Virus record (IMG/VR): IMGVR_UViG_3300008262_000001
Length of the DNA: 64,000 bases
Direction: 5' to 3' (one strand)
Origin: a virus
Lineage: Duplodnaviria; Caudoviricetes
Shown: positions 8,422 to 62,835 of the stretch, piece after piece
How the letters are laid out: each line of letters starts with the position of its first letter
How positions within the stretch are numbered: position 1 is the stretch's first letter
Notes under the pieces: model-generated
Told to the model about the DNA's origin: nothing
What the model saw: the letters and a program-made list of their open reading frames with translations, nothing else
Database searches by the model: none
Program-made: the position numbers and the translations under genes

Positions 8422-9942
8422 TTAACGAACCCAAGGTACACCTATGGTTTTTGGTATTGTTGGTAACTGTTGCCAATTAAGAGTTGCAGCTCCAATTGTT
8501 CCTTTGTAAACCCAGATTGTTCTACCATTAGAGGAGTCGATATCAGTGGCAGTAACGTGTCCTACATCTAGGCTTCCCCCATATGGAACAGTTAAAATTG
8601 TTGTTGTTCCAGGTGTACTAGATCTTATAATCGCATTATTAGAAGCTACACCTAAAAAAGTAAGAGAATTTGTTGTATAAATTAAATTCGATCCAAAAGT
8701 ATGAGTTACACCTGTGCCTTGACCAGTATAAGTTTCGAATGTACATCCATGGGTTCCACTAAACACAACATTGTTTAATGCAGAAAAATTTGCTAAGTTG
8801 AAACCACTATTGTTTATAGTGAATGAACTTACAGCAGGACACGCTACTGTACTACCAGTAGAAACAATTGTTCCCGAGGTGAAAATAAAAGTTCTTAACC
8901 AAGAAATCGTACCAGAAAATGTAATAGTTCCAGAGGTGTTGATTATTAAAGTGTTACTTAAATTACCAGTAGAAGTTCCGCTAATAGTTCCCGTGCCTGT
9001 CATAACTATTTTTGCAGTTCCAGAAGGAGAACCACCGGCGTTGTTATTAGTGAAGTTACCCCCTATATTTACATTTATTCCTGGACCATTAATATTTGCT
9101 ATAGAACTTGGAATTGTAAAGTTGCCTGTAAAATTAAGATCTGATATTAAGGTCGTGGTATTGGTAGAATTGTTTGTTTGGCAATTTTGAAATGACATCC
9201 CCGAAGCGTCAAAAGTGTTAAACCCTGCAAGTAAAATAGTTCCTGTGTGTGTTACTGCACCATTGATGTGAGTAAAAATCGTAGACAAAGTTAGAAGGGA
9301 TATATTTATATTGACATCACCTGCTCCATTAATAGTTACTGAAGCCATAGCCCATCTAGCATTTGTACTACTTGTTATGTTCATAGTGGTTCCAAGATCA
9401 GGTGCAAAAACTAGCGCAGATGTCCCTACGACGGAAGAAAGATTATTCCATTGTACTGATGATCCTTTAAAGGTAATTGTATTACCATTCCAAGTCCATG
9501 CGGTTGTTCCGGAAAGAATAAAAGCACCAGATTGTGTCCAGTTACTACCCCAGGTAAGAGTTGCAGTACCAGTACTTTTTTGTATAATCATTGTCACCGA
9601 GCAAATACATCCAAGGGATGATAAAGAAAGTGTTGTCCCTGGAGTAAGTCTAAGCGACGATGAACCTGCCATAGTCATAGATGAAGAGCCAAGTGCAACA
9701 TTACCAGTCACAATCAATTCGGTATCAAAAGTAAGGGTTCCTGTATAACTTGTACAAGTAAGATTTAAACAGTTACGGGTAGCGCCAGCATTTATGATAC
9801 AGTTAGCACTAGCAGCCTCGAAAACAGCATTGTCAAGAGTAGTTGGAACAGCTCCTGCTGAATAAGTAGGGGATGGCGTTGCACTCCAATCACCAGTAGC
9901 TCCCCAGTTTGTACCTGTACTCCTAAAATAATATGTGGCCAT
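8422..9942 (-). CDS. Beta-helix fibre/adhesin-like protein (paralogue of 9946-11556)
   Basis: 506 aa, T/G/S-rich; shares C-terminus (THTF...LDVG.V..TDIDSS.G.T.W.Y.GT....NWQQLP). Confidence 0.65.
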   Translation of the reverse strand: MATYYFRSTGTNWGATGDWSATPSPTYSAGAVPTTLDNAVFEAASANCIINAGATRNCLNLTCTSYTGTLTFDTELIVTGNVALGSSSMTMAGSSSLRLTPGTTLSLSSLGCICSVTMIIQKSTGTATLTWGSNWTQSGAFILSGTTAWTWNGNTITFKGSSVQWNNLSSVVGTSALVFAPDLGTTMNITSSTNARWAMASVTINGAGDVNINISLLTLSTIFTHINGAVTHTGTILLAGFNTFDASGMSFQNCQTNNSTNTTTLISDLNFTGNFTIPSSIANINGPGINVNIGGNFTNNNAGGSPSGTAKIVMTGTGTISGTSTGNLSNTLIINTSGTITFSGTISWLRTFIFTSGTIVSTGSTVACPAVSSFTINNSGFNLANFSALNNVVFSGTHGCTFETYTGQGTGVTHTFGSNLIYTTNSLTFLGVASNNAIIRSSTPGTTTILTVPYGGSLDVGHVTATDIDSSNGRTIWVYKGTIGAATLNWQQLPTIPKTIGVPWVR

Positions 9943-9945
9943 AAT

Positions 9946-11556
9946 TTATATATTGAAGCTAGAGATTGTTGTAGGTTGAACTGGAAGTTGTTGCCAATTA
10001 GTAGTTCTAAGAAAAGTCCCCCTATAATCCCAGACTGTTTGTCCCTGTGATGAATCAATATCGGTTGGATTAACGTATCCCACATCTATAGTCGCTCCCT
10101 GTACAACAGTGAAAACTGCTTGTGTGCTTGGGACAGACGAAACAAAAGAAATCCTAGAAGCTTCAGTTCCAGCTAAAGTAATTCCTTCATTAACTGTATA
10201 CGTTTTGCTTGCAGAAAAAGTATGGGTAAGTCCTGCAACCGAGGAGTTGTACGTCCTAAAAGTTGCTCCTTGAGATCCAGCGAAAATAGGTGCACCCCCT
10301 GTTGCAGCAAAAAAGTTGGGAAATGGGAAAGTAGCACTGTTTAAATTATAAGTTGTTGATCCAGATACTGTCCACCAATTCGCGTTGGGCTGAGTAAATA
10401 CAATCGTACCTGATGTGTGTGTAAAACTTCGGCCAGCCCCACCATAGAGATTATTTGTACTAAAAAAAGTTACAGTCCCTGAGCAATTTATAATTAAATC
10501 TAAACCAAATCTTGCAGAAGCTGGGAGTGTTGCACCTGTTAAAGTGAAGGTAGGCGAAACAGAAGTAACATTAATTATAGTTGTCCCTGTAACTACTTGA
10601 CCTCCAGCATTGTGCAAGGTTGTAAGATTTCCGGTTAAGTTAATAGTGGATCCAGAAAGTGTGGGACTGATAGATTGCAAAGAGTTCCCAAAAAAAAGAG
10701 TTCCACTAATTTGTATATTATTAGCTAATGTGAAAGTAGCAGTTCCATTAAAACGTATATCCCCTGCTATAACACCAAAAGCATTTATAGATAATGTTGA
10801 GGCTACAGTAAATCTCAATTCTGTTGAGGCAGTAACTGTCACGCCTGCACTTGAAGTATGAGTGATACTTCCAAAATCTATGAATTTATTTGGATAATTA
10901 AACAAAACACTCCCTGCACCATTTATAGTTAGAGAATTTCTTAAATTGTTGTTTCCTGAGGTGTTTGGGTAAGGTGTGCTTATCGTGCAAGTCGTAGAAA
11001 CTGGAGGTGCCAAAATTATTCCTGCGGTTCCTTGAACAGCTATCGCTTGTGTTGCTGATCCCACTGTTAAATTTCCTCTTGCAGTTATTGACAATCCTGC
11101 TCCGTTCACAACCTGGGTGAGGGAAGTTCCTGGAATAAATTCAAGATTTCCTTCAATAGTCCAATTATCCCCTAAAGTTATAGTCCTACTTGCACCGGAG
11201 CCTTGAGGTGCAAATCTTAGATTTCCTGTCCAAACTTTTCCTCCGGAAGTCATTGTGAAAGTGCCATTGAAAGATAAAGTTCCTGTTCCTGCCACAGTCA
11301 TACCTGAAACAAATGTAAAAGGCTGTGAAGTTGCACTACCCGCACCCTGAGAAAGTGTTACACCGGAGTTAATAGTAAAAGTATTTGTGTAATTTGTAAA
11401 ATTAACACCATTGATTGTAGCATTTGCAGTCACTGTTAATGGACCAGAAGTAGCAGTAGCAATTACACTGTCTGCAGCTACTGGAACAACTCCACCTACC
11501 CATGTCCCAGTTGCGTTCCAGTTACCACCTGTATTACTTATAGTAATTACTGCCAT
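9946..11556 (-). CDS. Beta-helix fibre/adhesin-like protein (paralogue of 8422-9942)
   Basis: 536 aa; GGNWNATGTW N-terminus as in autotransporter-type passenger repeats. Confidence 0.65.
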   Translation of the reverse strand: MAVITISNTGGNWNATGTWVGGVVPVAADSVIATATSGPLTVTANATINGVNFTNYTNTFTINSGVTLSQGAGSATSQPFTFVSGMTVAGTGTLSFNGTFTMTSGGKVWTGNLRFAPQGSGASRTITLGDNWTIEGNLEFIPGTSLTQVVNGAGLSITARGNLTVGSATQAIAVQGTAGIILAPPVSTTCTISTPYPNTSGNNNLRNSLTINGAGSVLFNYPNKFIDFGSITHTSSAGVTVTASTELRFTVASTLSINAFGVIAGDIRFNGTATFTLANNIQISGTLFFGNSLQSISPTLSGSTINLTGNLTTLHNAGGQVVTGTTIINVTSVSPTFTLTGATLPASARFGLDLIINCSGTVTFFSTNNLYGGAGRSFTHTSGTIVFTQPNANWWTVSGSTTYNLNSATFPFPNFFAATGGAPIFAGSQGATFRTYNSSVAGLTHTFSASKTYTVNEGITLAGTEASRISFVSSVPSTQAVFTVVQGATIDVGYVNPTDIDSSQGQTVWDYRGTFLRTTNWQQLPVQPTTISSFNI

Positions 11557-11799: not shown

Positions 11800-16792
<4,993 letters not shown>

Positions 16793-31157: not shown

Positions 31158-32012
31158 ATGAAACACCTCAAACCAATAGAAGAGTTTATAAACGAACAAC
31201 TTTTTAGAAATGCCTATGGAAAGTTTCTAGACCTATTAGGATTGGGTGGACCAGAAGAAGTTAAAGACCCTAAACCTTCTATAGTTGGTGGTAGTGTGAG
31301 ATTTTCAGGTTCAGGTGATAAGGGTAAAAATATTCAGCTTCTTATTGACGCAATGAAAAAGCACGGGATCACAAATCCTTTCACACAAATAGCAATTCTT
31401 GGAGTAGTAGGAAAAGAAAGTGGTTACATTCCAAAAATAGAAAAAGGATACGGAAATACCTCACCGGAAAGAATTAGAAAAATATTTGGAGCAAGAGTAA
31501 ACGATCTGACAGATGCTCAAATCGATCAAATCAAGACAAATGATGAGAAATTCTTTGATCTCGTTTATGGACCAGGTGATAAAACAGGGAAGTCTCAGAA
31601 ATATGGAAATTCAGCTCCAGGAGACGGTTGGAAATTTAGAGGAAGAGGTTTCAACCAATTAACCTTCAAAGGATCATATGAAAAAATGCAAAAGTTATAT
31701 GATTCAAAAGGAAAGCTAAACAGACAAGTAAACATTGTAACAAATCCAGATTTACTTGATGATCCGGAAGTTGCAGCAGAATTTGCGGTTCTTTATTTCC
31801 TATCTAGAGCATCAAGTCCGCAAATGGCTCAAAAATTTGGTGTTGCAGATATAAACGGTTTTAAAGATCAATTCACTGCTACCAAAGCAATGACTAATGC
31901 AAATGCTGGTTGGGGTAACGATGTTACCAATGACGAAGGATTCGTACGTGCCCAACAATTTGCAGCTAATTTTTCAGTTGATCTATCTTCAGGAACCGCA
32001 ACGATGGCTTGA
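31158..32012 (+). CDS. GH19-family lysozyme/chitinase-like muramidase with MKHLKPIEEFINE tag
   Basis: GKESG (catalytic Glu), GDGWKFRGRGFNQLT, NPDLL; GATAAATAC at 31130-31138. Confidence 0.85.
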   Translation: MKHLKPIEEFINEQLFRNAYGKFLDLLGLGGPEEVKDPKPSIVGGSVRFSGSGDKGKNIQLLIDAMKKHGITNPFTQIAILGVVGKESGYIPKIEKGYGNTSPERIRKIFGARVNDLTDAQIDQIKTNDEKFFDLVYGPGDKTGKSQKYGNSAPGDGWKFRGRGFNQLTFKGSYEKMQKLYDSKGKLNRQVNIVTNPDLLDDPEVAAEFAVLYFLSRASSPQMAQKFGVADINGFKDQFTATKAMTNANAGWGNDVTNDEGFVRAQQFAANFSVDLSSGTATMA

Positions 32013-32661: not shown

Positions 32662-34944
32662 ATGAAAAATGTATTAGCAGTTGTTTCATTTGTACTACTT
32701 TCTTTTCTGTCACTCGGACAAAGTTTGATAGATGATATAGGTAGACAAGTGTTACTTACACCGAAGCTTGATGCAAGGAAGCATCAGGTGGACGAATTTT
32801 TGGATTTTTACAATGTAGAGATTGTGAGCTATTTAGATCAGCTTGACATCTATGTTGTAAGAACAAATGATTTTGATCTTCTCACAGCACTCTGTGAGGA
32901 TAGTGGTTTATTTGGTATAATCGAAAGAGATAGAATGGAAGAAATCAAATTCGATTATATTCCCAATGATACTGAATTTGCCTCTTGTTGGCATTTGAGA
33001 CAAGCAAATGACAAAGACATTGATGCAGATGAAGCTTGGGATTTACTTCCAACAGACAACCAATGGGTTTCTGTTGCTATGTTTGATGGTGGACTTGATA
33101 TGACAATTCCCGAATTTGTTGGAAATGTCGACAGCCCGTTTAATGCTGTGAATGGTACTAACTCAGTTCCCTATGTTAACTCAGAAGATAAACATGGTAC
33201 TGCTTGCTCTGGTACAATAGCAGCAAGAACCAATAACGGAATTGGTGTTAGCAGTGTTGGTAACAACTTTGTTAAGGTTATGCCTGTCAACATTATGTCG
33301 CAGGTTTATGCAGGAGGAACTTTTGGAACTTCTACCGGAATTCAAGTTGCAGCAGTTAATGCAGCAATGGCAAATCCCAATTGTGTTGCTATTGCGATGT
33401 CTTATGGTGGTAGCACATACTCTGCAACTCTTGAAAATGCTTTTTTGAATGCAAGGGCAAACGGAAGAGGAGGCAAAGGAATGATGGTATTTGCTTCTTC
33501 CGGTAATGGTTATTCAGGAACTGCAGCTCAATATCCAGCTAACTACAATGGAGTTTGGGGGGTTGGTGCAACAACCTCATCAGATACAAGAGCTAGTTTT
33601 TCGAATTATGGTCAAATCTGTGACATTTCTGGACCCGGTTCAGCAATTAGAACCACTGACAGACTTGGTGCCGAAGGATATGATCCAACTGACTACAAGA
33701 GCGTTAGCGGGACATCTTTCAGTTGTCCAATAACAGCTGCAGCTTCAGCAGTTATCGCTTATAAAAACTGGGAGTTAACTGATGATGAGATTTTGCAAAT
33801 TCTATCTTCAACTTGTGAAAAGGTTGGTGGTTACACTTACACTAATAATCCAACTTGGCCTTACAGTACTAGAAGTAACGAATTAGGTTATGGAAGGATT
33901 AATCTTAAAAATGCAGTTATTGCAACACCCACACCTGGTGGTCCACCTCCACCTCCACCAACAATAGTTTCTAACTACACTGTTAACAATGTAATAGTAA
34001 CTCCAGCTAGTGTAAACTTAGGAGAGACAATTTTAGTAAACTACAACGCTATAGTTACTGAAGAAGTAAATGTATCAACTACCTTTGCCACATTTGTTGG
34101 CGTACAATATAGATATTCAGCAAACTCTACATTGGGTGATGCAGATGACATTATAATTGGTGTCGATAGTGTGAGCTTAGGTGGAGGAAATAATTCTGTA
34201 ACTAGATCTTTCTCCTATACAGTTGATGGGATGGCAGGTACACGTTACATATTCGTAACCATAAACTATGACAATGCAGCAGAAGAAACTATAACTTCGG
34301 ATAACACAAGTTTCAAAGCTTTCAATGTTGCAAATCCATCTATGACGGGAACAGACCTTCGTGTGGAACTTGTTCAACCAGTAGCAAATCCCTGGACGAC
34401 TTCTCTCCAGATAGTAAACACACAATGGAGAGCGGTTAACACAGGAACTACAACAATCAACCAGATCAATTACACAAGAAGATGGATTGATTGCACAGCA
34501 GCTTATGGATGTGTAACAAATTCAACTTGGACAGGCACTTTGCTTCCTGGACAATCAACTTTGCTTCCTGCAAACAACACTTATATAAGTGTGAATCTTT
34601 GTCACCCAACAAGATGTGCAGTTCCAGTAGGAACTTCGAACACTTTCAGATTGGATGTGATAAGTGTGAACGGAACAATGGGGGACACTGATCCAACTAA
34701 CAATAGGGTTGATCTTGTTTTCAATCGCCTTGCAACAAGTGGAGAAGATATCATCGGTAATTATCCTCTTCTTGACGATCCTGAAGGTGTTTATATTGAA
34801 GACGATTATCCAATTGCTGTAGAGATCTACACAATTACTGGAGCTTTATTGGACATTAACAGATATAGTGAATTACCAAGTGGTATTTACATTATCAAAG
34901 CTCAATATATGGATAGAACAGAAACTTTCAAATGGGCTAAATAA
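32662..34944 (+). CDS. Secreted S8 subtilisin-like protease with CARDB-like domains and a T9SS C-terminal sorting domain
   Basis: Signal peptide; triad FDGG / HGTACSG / GTSFSCP; oxyanion SGN; Pro linker; C-terminus VEIYTITG..LPSGIYIIK..TETFKWAK. Confidence 0.9.
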   Translation: MKNVLAVVSFVLLSFLSLGQSLIDDIGRQVLLTPKLDARKHQVDEFLDFYNVEIVSYLDQLDIYVVRTNDFDLLTALCEDSGLFGIIERDRMEEIKFDYIPNDTEFASCWHLRQANDKDIDADEAWDLLPTDNQWVSVAMFDGGLDMTIPEFVGNVDSPFNAVNGTNSVPYVNSEDKHGTACSGTIAARTNNGIGVSSVGNNFVKVMPVNIMSQVYAGGTFGTSTGIQVAAVNAAMANPNCVAIAMSYGGSTYSATLENAFLNARANGRGGKGMMVFASSGNGYSGTAAQYPANYNGVWGVGATTSSDTRASFSNYGQICDISGPGSAIRTTDRLGAEGYDPTDYKSVSGTSFSCPITAAASAVIAYKNWELTDDEILQILSSTCEKVGGYTYTNNPTWPYSTRSNELGYGRINLKNAVIATPTPGGPPPPPPTIVSNYTVNNVIVTPASVNLGETILVNYNAIVTEEVNVSTTFATFVGVQYRYSANSTLGDADDIIIGVDSVSLGGGNNSVTRSFSYTVDGMAGTRYIFVTINYDNAAEETITSDNTSFKAFNVANPSMTGTDLRVELVQPVANPWTTSLQIVNTQWRAVNTGTTTINQINYTRRWIDCTAAYGCVTNSTWTGTLLPGQSTLLPANNTYISVNLCHPTRCAVPVGTSNTFRLDVISVNGTMGDTDPTNNRVDLVFNRLATSGEDIIGNYPLLDDPEGVYIEDDYPIAVEIYTITGALLDINRYSELPSGIYIIKAQYMDRTETFKWAK

Positions 34945-34967
34945 ACCCAAGACGAAATATATAAGAA

Positions 34968-34999
34968 AGAGGCTTGGCATCCCGCCAGGCCTTTTTTTT
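34968..34999 (+). terminator. Intrinsic terminator
   Basis: GGCTTGGC-ATCCC-GCCAGGCC stem followed by T8. Confidence 0.85.
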
Positions 35000-35019: not shown

Positions 35020-35373
35020 ATGAAAAATCTAATCACTATCTTACTTGTGTTGTTTGGTTACTCCGCATTTTCTCAAGACGGATTGTATTACTTCAATCAA
35101 AATGGAAGAAAAGACACTATAGTGAGTTTATACAATTCATCAGTACCTGAGAGAATTCCTATCGGAGACACTTTAGTTACAAGGATAAAGAAAAATCAGA
35201 TTGATTCAGATGGAGATTTCTTTTTGTTGCTTAAAAGTGGTACAGAAATAAAAGGAAAAATCTTCGTTAAAGAATCTAGAAAATACATTTTATTTGACTT
35301 GTATATAGAAGTAATAAATTACACGAATGGTAATTATTACTCAGCTAAAAGATTTTTAAAACCTGAAGATTAA
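35020..35373 (+). CDS. Secreted hypothetical protein
   Basis: Signal peptide MKNLITILLVLFGYSAFS|Q. Confidence 0.7.
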   Translation: MKNLITILLVLFGYSAFSQDGLYYFNQNGRKDTIVSLYNSSVPERIPIGDTLVTRIKKNQIDSDGDFFLLLKSGTEIKGKIFVKESRKYILFDLYIEVINYTNGNYYSAKRFLKPED

Positions 35374-35957
35374 TTAACCCTATAATTTGGGTAAGATCCT
35401 AGTGTTGGTTTGACATTTGGAAAATAATACATCTCTACGATCTGTCCATATTGTATTTCCTTCCAAAAGCCTCCAGGAACGGTTGATCCTGTTGGCTGCT
35501 TAATTGTATTTTTAGAAAAGTCTAGTTTAATATGCACGTAGACATCCTGAGACTTAGCTATTTCTCTTTCTCTTAACTCCAACATTCTCCAAACACCTCT
35601 ATTCAAGTCTTGGTGCTGTAAAGCACAATTCAAATATGTAAAGGTTTTATGTAAAGTAGCTTTGTCGCAAGAAAAGTCAGCAGCAGGTGCCAAATGGCCT
35701 TTATCCCAAACGTTGTTTTCATAATCTTCATGTGAAGATGTGTGGATTGAATCACATTTGTAAAAATCCATACCAGCTCTAGAAGCCTTGCCATTTGGGC
35801 ATTTCACACTATACCAAATTTCTAGAGGTTGTTCAAATTCTTCAGAGTACAAAATAGTGAAAATGTCAGATTTGACTTTAATAACCCTTGGAGGATAAAA
35901 ACAAAAAGAAGTTAAGAATGCAAATAATAAAACGTAAATAATTCTAGCTTTCATCAT
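35370..35957 (-). CDS. Secreted DNA/RNA non-specific endonuclease (NucA/Serratia type)
   Basis: WDKGHLAP, TF.YLNCALQHQDLNRGVWRMLE; N-terminal hydrophobic signal. Confidence 0.88.
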   Translation of the reverse strand: MMKARIIYVLLFAFLTSFCFYPPRVIKVKSDIFTILYSEEFEQPLEIWYSVKCPNGKASRAGMDFYKCDSIHTSSHEDYENNVWDKGHLAPAADFSCDKATLHKTFTYLNCALQHQDLNRGVWRMLELREREIAKSQDVYVHIKLDFSKNTIKQPTGSTVPGGFWKEIQYGQIVEMYYFPNVKPTLGSYPNYRVN

Positions 35958-48348: not shown

Positions 48349-49182
48349 TTAGGCCAAGAGGCTATAGTATTCTTTGAAATGTTTGATACGATCAGGTAAT
48401 CCAATAGTTCCTCCGTTTACTCTCTTTGTTACTGCTGTGACAGTTGCATCATCTGCACCTTTATCACATATGCTCCAAAGTCCGTTATTGTTGAAGAAAA
48501 ATGCAGCAGACATCAATGGATATTTAGTTGCAACTAAATCTGGATTGGCTAAGATATCTTCATCAACCATTTTATCGAAAGCTGAGTAATTAGATTTTCC
48601 TGTTAGTTGGATATAACCTCTACCTCTGAATTTATAGCCATCACCAGAAGCTTCATCTCCATTTCCCATTCTAGAAGAATAAACCTTGTTGGCAATTTTT
48701 TCGGGTTGTCTAGAATATGATTCGTTTAAGTTTCCAGGAAAGTATTTAGGAAAAATCTTTTTAAGGCCATCAGCTGAATAGTTTAGATTCTCAGAGACAG
48801 CTTTGAAACCTCCTGATTCATGACCACACTGAGCTAAGAAGTGTGCAAGTCTTAAAGTGTTTGTAATTCCAAATTTTGCAGCAGTGTCTGGAATCTGTGC
48901 AATCACTGCATCCGGAATATGACCTTTTAGTTTATCCAGCTTGAAAGAGCTTGATGGAATGGTAACTGGTGATGCTGAAGGGGCATCAGGAAAAGAAGCA
49001 GTAACTCCCATCCGATCCAATGTTGCTGGGCCTGCTATTCCGTCAGCAGTGAGACCGTGTTTTTCTTGCCATTGTTTTAGCGATTGTTCTGTGCCTGGAC
49101 CGAAATTTCCGTCTGCTCCAATTCCTAGAGCTTTCTGTAATCTTTCCACATCAGGACCTTTAGAGCCGAGTTTAAGAATCAT
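48349..49182 (-). CDS. Modular endolysin: peptidoglycan-binding domain + GH19
   Basis: LKLGSKGPDVERLQ..LG..DG.FG..T..DGIAG..T; AHFLAQCGHES, GDG.KFRGRGYIQLTG; GATATATAG at 49198-49206. Confidence 0.92.
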   Translation of the reverse strand: MILKLGSKGPDVERLQKALGIGADGNFGPGTEQSLKQWQEKHGLTADGIAGPATLDRMGVTASFPDAPSASPVTIPSSSFKLDKLKGHIPDAVIAQIPDTAAKFGITNTLRLAHFLAQCGHESGGFKAVSENLNYSADGLKKIFPKYFPGNLNESYSRQPEKIANKVYSSRMGNGDEASGDGYKFRGRGYIQLTGKSNYSAFDKMVDEDILANPDLVATKYPLMSAAFFFNNNGLWSICDKGADDATVTAVTKRVNGGTIGLPDRIKHFKEYYSLLA

Positions 49183-49223
49183 GAGATATATTTTTTACTA
49201 TATATCCCCAAAAAGTCCTTAAT

Positions 49224-62778: not shown

Positions 62779-62835
62779 TAAGACTTTTTCTTCTATATAT
62801 CATAGAAGAAAACTGGGAACATAGTTTCTTGACAA

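Follow-up and report, generated by a model that had tools for sequence, protein, structure and literature searches.

The window analyzed here is a stretch of 64,000 nt, part of a 174,942-bp virus record of the IMG/VR database (IMGVR_UViG_3300008262_000001; CheckV completeness, 63%). It carries a gene for a subtilisin-like protease (peptidase family S8) with a Sec signal peptide and a short C-terminal tail that, judging from profile comparisons, is evolutionarily related to the type A C-terminal domains (CTDs) of proteins exported through a type IX secretion system (T9SS). The gene is surrounded by phage-type neighbors: the window includes genes for a sigma factor, collagen-like tail fibers, a virion structural protein, a thymidylate synthase, a Dda-like helicase, and an endolysin. 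The features of the locus are listed in Table 1.

Table 1. Features of the protease locus and related sites (window coordinates, except where C1 is given)
Feature	Position	Strand	Details
Further ATATATAR sites	16744-16751, 49198-49205, 62793-62800	-	
Promoter-like motif ATATATAA	32012..32019	+	Heads a two-gene unit: 151-aa open reading frame (ORF) and protease gene
Upstream ORF, 151 aa	32177..32632	+	From ATG 32177; signal peptide ending AKA before Q; C-terminal hydrophobic helix
Protease gene	32662..34944	+	760 codons open; product of 760 aa
Sec signal peptide, residues 1-19	32662..32718	+	Predicted cleavage between G19 and Q20; matches the Bacteroidetes Q-rule (PMC5837995)
N-terminal propeptide, residues 20-~98	32719..32955	+	I9-like beta-alpha-beta-beta-alpha-beta fold
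Peptidase S8 catalytic domain, residues ~99-421	32956..33924	+	PF00082; D142, H178, N282, S352
Pro-rich linker, residues 422-435	33925..33966	+	GGPPPPPPT at 426-434; P430, P432, and P433 invariant
Two immunoglobulin (Ig)-like beta-sandwich domains, residues ~436-560 and 561-690	33967..34731	+	AlphaFold2, Foldseek
Variable disordered linker, residues 691-716	34732..34809	+	Predicted local distance difference test (pLDDT) <50 at 693-714; identity 27%
C-terminal tail, residues 717-760 (44 aa)	34810..34941	+	Shortened, type A CTD-like; matches host CTDs from the third strand through the last, fifth strand deleted
Intrinsic terminator closing the protease unit	34968..34999	+	9-pair GC-rich core stem, then eight T
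Small exported protein, 117 aa (p117)	35020..35373	+	Signal peptide ending AFS before Q
Exported non-specific nuclease, Endonuclease_NS	35370..35957	-	PF01223, E 2.3e-19; DKGH active-site motif; signal peptide
Examples of Gln-rule signal peptides	C1: 8576-9721, 9732-10295, 10295-10852, 19587-20048, 41565-42152, 42140-43405, 103586-104206		

The protein appears from its sequence to be an exported, apparently active pre-pro-subtilase. The signal peptide starts with MK, continues with a hydrophobic core and ends with SLG just before Q20; this n-h-c layout was found in all 43 aligned homologues, among which Q20 is invariant. In the AlphaFold2 model of residues 21-428, the propeptide fold spans residues 21-95, with pLDDT values of 90-96 over residues 21-90 and lower values beyond residue 90. 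Propeptides of the I9 type are typical of secreted subtilases, without being strictly defining; the Pfam I9 family had no match in this region. The best Foldseek matches of the whole model were unprocessed pro-subtilisins (template modeling score, TM, 0.64-0.69) and, together with the I9-like fold, they suggest a pre-pro-enzyme. The catalytic domain matched PF00082 at residues 136-411 (E = 2.7e-28); the score of 99.5 bits is above the cut-off of 21.8, and the match takes in positions 4-288 of the 288 of the profile. D142 (within FDGG), H178 (HGT), the oxyanion N282 (SGNG), and S352 (GTSFS) are invariant across the 43 homologues.

Downstream of the Pro-rich linker, both Ig-like domains were modeled with confidence (pLDDT mostly 83-94, AlphaFold2 model of residues 436-760 with 42 homologues), and Foldseek matched them to generic tandem Ig/fibronectin type III-like proteins, such as RbmA and factor XIII. 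No Pfam match to CARDB (PF07705) was obtained in residues 436-760 at E values up to 0.1. The original prediction, made from the letters alone, had described a Sec signal ending in LG before Q, an intact S8 Asp/His/Ser triad, a poly-Pro linker, and two CARDB/Ig-like modules. The signal, the triad, and the linker were all found as described; of the modules, the Ig-like fold was recovered and the CARDB assignment was not. A role of the protease as a virion component was considered and rejected, given its conserved cleavable signal peptide.

Then, we evaluated the relation of the tail to the type A CTDs. The tail lies at the extreme C-terminus, ends at the stop codon, and belongs to a protein bearing a Sec signal peptide; the string on which the CTD assignment had been based (VEIYTITGALL..LPSGIYIIK..TETFKWAK) is indeed present at residues 717-760. 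As a reference, we collected 30 Flavobacteriales CTDs from two genomes and built our own hidden Markov model (HMM), to be used also in hhalign comparisons with the tails of the family. This HMM gave ~10 bits on the isolated tail and 5.4 bits on the full-length protein, values too weak to be used alone, and the comparison was thus made profile to profile. The tails of the window's clade aligned to the 30 reference CTDs with a probability of 92% (P = 5.9e-7) over 48 columns, corresponding to reference positions 36-93. Among the controls, the reversed tails and the 20 column-shuffled ones stayed at probabilities of 0.8% or less. Of five slices of the protein also used as controls, four gave 0.9% or less, the exception being a slice with a 10-column match in the propeptide (10%).

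The hhalign path begins at the third strand of the reference CTD and continues up to the C-terminus, and a gap of 10 residues falls at the fifth strand. Along this path, the YTITG and LPSGIY stretches and the C-terminus ending in K..K of the window's clade align with the CTD motifs. In the numbering of PMC11285876, the retained sheet is beta4-beta3-beta6-beta7, with the beta3-beta4 loop and the C-terminal motif, while the beta5-beta2-beta1 sheet is missing. AlphaFold2 placed three strands in the tail (residues 719-724, 743-748, and 754-759; pLDDT ~75), preceded by 22 disordered residues. The Foldseek search with the C-terminal model was dominated by the two Ig-like domains and returned nothing specific to the tail. 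The linker preceding the tail is deleted in several subclades of the homologue alignment; by eye, its NYPLL...GVYIE stretch has about the right spacing to be a possible remnant of the first two CTD strands.

Within the family, mean pairwise identity was 79% for the S8 domain, 39% for the propeptide, 40% for the tail, and 27% for the linker at 691-716; the tail is therefore as conserved as the propeptide and more than the linker. L738 and G741 of the 'LPxGxY' strand are conserved in at least 90% of the homologues, and the tail is present in essentially all intact full-length homologues, down to ~46% identity. Two distant phage S8 genes (L083:6001-7827 and L084:1347-2945; 33-34% identity) encode proteins with neither the signal peptide nor the tail. 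These two proteins, which have a Lys-rich N-terminus in place of the signal peptide and stop where the second Ig-like domain ends, may represent forms of the enzyme that stay inside the cell or are packaged. On the basis of these comparisons, we read the tail as a probable descendant of a type A CTD, under selection and outside the definition of the family.

The protease gene belongs to the phage, and freshwater T4-like jumbo phages have kept it across a large clade. The protein search retrieved more than 120 full-length homologues with 49-95% identity, all of them metagenomic. A 93%-identical homologue lies on a 264-kb scaffold (L006) with a gene order identical to that of the window, and a 51%-identical one is found directly after the genes for terminase, T4-type portal, ribosomal protein S21, prohead protease, and Gp23. 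Relatives have an S21 gene (L003:3570-3761, minus strand) within the head module, between the portal-region genes and the prohead protease. Relatives of the protease gene occur on 40 IMG/VR contigs, the longest of 322 kb, and the DNA was found in lake and freshwater metagenomes from 16 studies. Among GenBank phages, megablast with the 25 kb around the gene gave no match, and tblastn with the protease retrieved only distant S8 domains of Bacillus and Acinetobacter phages, with identities of 35% or less.

Other proteins of these phages carry export signals of the Bacteroidota type. Outside the window, the same genome encodes a second CTD protein (C1:20772-22475, corresponding to L001:1-1704) in a frame of 567 aa, 554 aa from the likely start Met. 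It has a signal peptide ending in IFS before Q, three HYR_4C domains, and a type A CTD scoring 28.2 bits against the NCBIfam cut-off of 23, and it is the clearest candidate T9SS cargo of this genome. In three relatives with 77-78% identity (L046-L048), an exported protein of 642 aa, ending in a complete canonical CTD, is encoded at 8713-10638 on the plus strand, ~430 bp downstream of the protease and just after the p117 gene. Its CTD obtained 34-52 bits on our reference HMM, the lowest value coming from an ORF cut by the contig end, and the protein resembles the HYR protein described above in its last domain and CTD. A 199-aa ORF (C1 ~131634-132230, plus strand) has a weak match to the reference CTD HMM (11.6 bits, E = 0.005) and is a possible third CTD-like tail.

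Furthermore, a crude heuristic scan found at least 12 signal peptides in the genome that end just before Gln (examples in Table 1). A Gln immediately after the signal peptide is the Q-rule, reported as specific to Bacteroidetes (PMC5837995), and it was noted earlier in phages of Porphyromonas gingivalis (PMC10367356). The phage therefore seems to encode a sizeable set of exported proteins fitted to a Bacteroidota host. Considering the second CTD protein, the CTD genes of the relatives, and the Gln-rule signal peptides, the host is likely a T9SS-bearing member of the Bacteroidota.

A conserved neighbor of the protease gene is the exported nuclease, which adjoins it in 31 of the 42 related loci, in both clades. 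In the large clade, the nuclease gene lies directly upstream on the same strand, whereas in the window's clade the two genes are convergent; the nuclease homologues have Q-rule signal peptides and no CTD. The small flanking genes are less widespread. The 151-aa ORF, which had no Pfam or PHROG match, has homologues in six related loci, and L006 is the only one of them in which the homologue immediately precedes the protease gene. The 117-aa gene adjoins the protease in only seven clade-A loci, downstream in six of them and upstream in L063, and Q19, D20, and G21 of its product are invariant. The idea that this product is a potempin-like inhibitor was addressed by predicting its complex with the mature catalytic domain; the score was 0.00, which gives no verdict either way.

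A 284-aa protein encoded at 31158-32012 on the plus strand, 650 nt upstream of the protease gene, lacks a signal peptide and has a partial match to the endolysin family phrog_181. It represents a second lysin-like gene, since the true endolysin (48349-49182) also belongs to phrog_181. A lysis-cassette role of the protease was rejected, as the endolysin (peptidoglycan-binding/glycoside hydrolase family 19) is 13 kb away.

The motif at the head of the two-gene unit belongs to a set of ATATATAR sites. The window contains 16 of them, against 9.1 +/- 3.0 expected; all 16 are upstream of a gene on the same strand, and 12 are within 60 nt of the start, usually at 11-23 nt. The genes preceded by the motif include those for a tail fiber, a 1221-aa virion protein, and the endolysin. 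The site at 32012 is conserved in L006, and a related motif, ATATTTATA, is found 29-30 nt before the protease ATG in L046 and L047; in clade B, ATATTTATA precedes capsid genes, tail genes, and the nuclease-protease cassette. Scans for sigma-70 and Bacteroidota-type (TAnnTTTG) promoters gave results not above chance. ATATATAR looks like a T4-late-like promoter of the phage and, because this motif and ATATTTATA also precede structural and endolysin genes, the protease is probably expressed late, together with the structural and lysis genes.

The terminator of the unit was missed by the terminator scan and confirmed by folding: it reaches -24.2 kcal/mol (z = -6.15), none of 200 shuffled sequences folds as well, and RNAfold gives a stem of 17 pairs when the flanking A/U runs are included. 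The hairpin and its T-rich tail are kept in L006. Immediately upstream of the terminator, and adjoining the 5' arm of its stem, there is a second ATATATAA motif (34957-34964), an arrangement also kept in L006. Transcripts starting from this second motif would contain the stem only in part and could continue into the 117-aa gene; those coming from upstream would stop.

We consider it slightly better than an even bet that the pre-pro-subtilase of this phage clade is exported by Sec, enters the host T9SS by means of its reduced CTD, and acts outside the cell together with the nuclease. The protease gene would be transcribed with the upstream small ORF from the late-type motif, and transcription would stop at its own terminator. 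The product would be exported by Sec and cut by signal peptidase I before Gln20, and the I9-like propeptide, judging from its fold, would aid folding and hold the enzyme inactive in the periplasm until self-cleavage. Then, the 44-residue tail, as a cut-down CTD keeping the beta3-beta4 loop and the C-terminal Lys motif, would hand the enzyme to the host T9SS, which would carry it across the outer membrane; the CTD relationship is what the present data support, and the handover is what we propose. Once outside or on the cell surface, the enzyme might act late in infection on surface or matrix proteins and degrade them, with the exported nuclease, conserved together with it, at work beside it. 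Speculatively, its likeliest targets would be protein receptors and the debris that otherwise would trap the progeny.

This reading is supported by the phage origin and conservation of the gene, by the features of an exported zymogen, by the relation of the tail to CTDs (to which the sub-threshold TIGR04183 matches of 12 of the 43 homologues also point), by the signs of a T9SS in the host, by the late-type motif, and by the co-occurrence of signal peptide and tail: the L083 and L084 proteins lack both. A short T9SS signal is possible, since the last 22 residues of the CTD of P. gingivalis HBP35 are reported to be enough for the secretion of green fluorescent protein (GFP; review PMC10202324). 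Export of the protease through the T9SS is plausible, with chances a little above one half.

The strongest competitor is an export by Sec only. Held inhibited by the propeptide, the enzyme would stay periplasmic or at the outer membrane until lysis freed it together with the nuclease. The tail would be a vestige of an ancestral CTD, kept for folding, for stability, or for another contact. We regard this as possible, with chances well short of even. It would account for the weakness of the match to the known CTD families. The HMM check proposed with the original prediction came out negative: TIGR04183 (Por_Secre_tail) reached 14.8 bits by hmmscan (residues 719-760) and 18.9 bits in the six-frame search, below its cut-off of 23, and the Pfam family PF18962 (Por_Secre_tail) had no match to the tail. 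The claim of a type A CTD is therefore retained as relatedness and not as a full, recognizable domain. The TIGR04183 alignment covers just profile positions 21/22-71 of 72, and matches to this profile, all sub-threshold (E < 1), occurred in 12 of the 43 homologues only, with a best E value of 5.7e-4. To give a scale, the two Flavobacteriales genomes hold 85 and 149 TIGR04183 matches, and those listed score 38-61 bits over positions 1-72.

The structural evidence is similarly partial. The first two CTD strands (the YPNP region) are unaligned and the fifth is missing, and the AlphaFold2 model, which is not an experimental structure, did not build the seven-strand 3+4 sandwich but predicted only half of it. 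In the largest subclade, the GxY strand is replaced by KGLNIIHIHY, the GxY signature is gone, and the hhalign probability goes down to 46%. In P. gingivalis, an intact and well-folded CTD was reported as essential, and CTDs are not interchangeable between species (PMC11285876). The nuclease partner has a signal peptide and no CTD at all. Moreover, the late promoter motif would put the synthesis of the protease near lysis, so the enzyme could simply leave the periplasm when the cell opens, with no need of the T9SS. Lastly, full-length CTDs are kept on other proteins of the same phages, and the short form may serve another purpose. From the TIGR04183 and Pfam scores to the last point, these observations weigh against export through the T9SS.

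On the other hand, a useless appendage would be expected to vanish from compact phage genomes, whereas this tail persists with conserved strand residues in nearly every intact member of the family, and the two relatives without a signal peptide are also without it. Furthermore, what the tail retains are the beta3-beta4 loop and the C-terminal motif, the two motifs described as relevant to, and needed for, T9SS function (PMC11285876).

It is improbable, in our judgment, that the tail acquired a new job unrelated to secretion, in which its exposed face would pair with an exported neighbor, an outer-membrane protein, or a second copy of the protease, anchoring or targeting the enzyme in the envelope. 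A three-strand half-domain would, as the model suggests, leave a hydrophobic face open, exported proteins of unassigned function lie on both flanks, and the short form is stable family-wide, although other proteins of the same phages have kept canonical CTDs. However, any partner would be hypothetical, the flanking small genes are conserved in one clade only, and the tail still aligns specifically to CTDs, terminal Lys motif included.

Finally, the reading as host DNA misjoined to a phage contig, or as a passenger taken recently from the host and without a phage role, was rejected as very nearly without credit: the order of signal peptide, S8, Ig-like domains, and CTD is typical of Bacteroidota proteins (e.g., L009 and L010), but the gene occupies the same neighborhood on independent assemblies from at least 16 studies, has phage genes on both flanks and a GC content like that of the surrounding sequence, and its closest relative among 185,579 species genomes, carried by a 4.8-kb contig of a Flavobacteriaceae metagenome-assembled genome, reaches just 41% identity across the protease domain, the remaining matches being 35% identical or less. 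Misassembly and recent host capture were set aside because of the virus record, the synteny shared on independent assemblies (including the 264-kb relative and the 40 IMG/VR contigs), and the distance of the bacterial relatives, and the gene is a phage gene as first predicted.

Returning to export through the T9SS, a bolder version of it can be put forward, tentatively and as a rather unlikely elaboration. The tail would be a natural minimal T9SS tag, a single-sheet 'half-CTD' reduced to the beta3-beta4 loop and the C-terminal motif and maintained for a long time. The late-made protease would leave through the host T9SS at the same time as the exported nuclease or shortly before it, and the two would form a late 'exit kit' that strips receptors and the DNA/protein matrix from the dying cell, leaving the progeny untrapped.

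Phage-borne T9SS cargo is already known. Cryophage encodes three cargo genes with type A CTDs (Bellas et al. 2020, Nat Commun, PMC7468147), and crAss-like phages also encode proteins with T9SS sorting domains (de Jonge et al. 2019, PMC6949934). As in those phages, the gene described here is a hydrolase gene of a Bacteroidota phage with export signals of the host type and a presumed use of the host T9SS, and the genome also has one protein with a CTD above the family cut-off. The cargo of Cryophage and crAss-like phages consists of glycoside hydrolases, a PA14 protein, and BACON proteins, with recognizable CTDs and encoded by variable 'flexible' genes. In contrast, here the cargo would be a protease, conserved across a large clade of jumbo phages, paired with an exported nuclease, and with a tail that is short and scores under the threshold.

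Among proteins of known structure, the best sequence match to the catalytic domain in the PDB was mirolase (8ehe; E = 3.2e-22), a KLIKK protease of Tannerella forsythia, just marginally better than thermitase. Both mirolase and the phage protein are Bacteroidota-linked subtilisin-like proteases in which a signal peptide and a prodomain come first and a sorting domain, or in the phage protein a tail related to one, comes last; mirolase is secreted by the T9SS. Mirolase, unlike the phage protein, is chromosomal, has a complete seven-strand CTD (PMC11285876) and a dedicated inhibitor, potempin C, and lacks tandem Ig-like domains of this kind. The chromosomal Bacteroidota S8-CTD proteins (L009 and L010) resemble the phage protein in having a signal peptide, an S8 domain (31-35% identical), extended beta-rich regions, and a C-terminus of the sorting type; they differ in having full-length CTDs (39-49 bits on the reference HMM), a length of ~1,640 aa, and no synteny with the phage genes. 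Lastly, the tail resembles the minimal signal of HBP35 in keeping C-terminal strands with the GxY and terminal Lys motifs (PMC10202324); the 22-residue signal of HBP35 is an engineered truncation in one species, whereas the phage short form is natural and conserved.

What is new is that a reduced form of the tag is conserved and that an exported nuclease accompanies it. In the literature searched, we found no description of a protease as phage T9SS cargo or of its conservation through a large jumbo-phage clade, nor of a stable cut-down tail beside canonical CTDs in the same phages or of an exported nuclease as the partner. Should the tail prove not to be a working secretion signal, the protein would be an ordinary phage-borne exported subtilase with a decayed tail of the host type. 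If it does work, it would be the smallest natural signal accepted by the T9SS, it would bear on which parts of the CTD are read by the translocon, and it could provide a compact export tag for Bacteroidota. In that case, widespread lake jumbo phages would, late in infection, direct a protease paired with an exported nuclease into the host envelope or beyond it, pointing to a release or receptor-destroying function that is unstudied in Bacteroidota phages.

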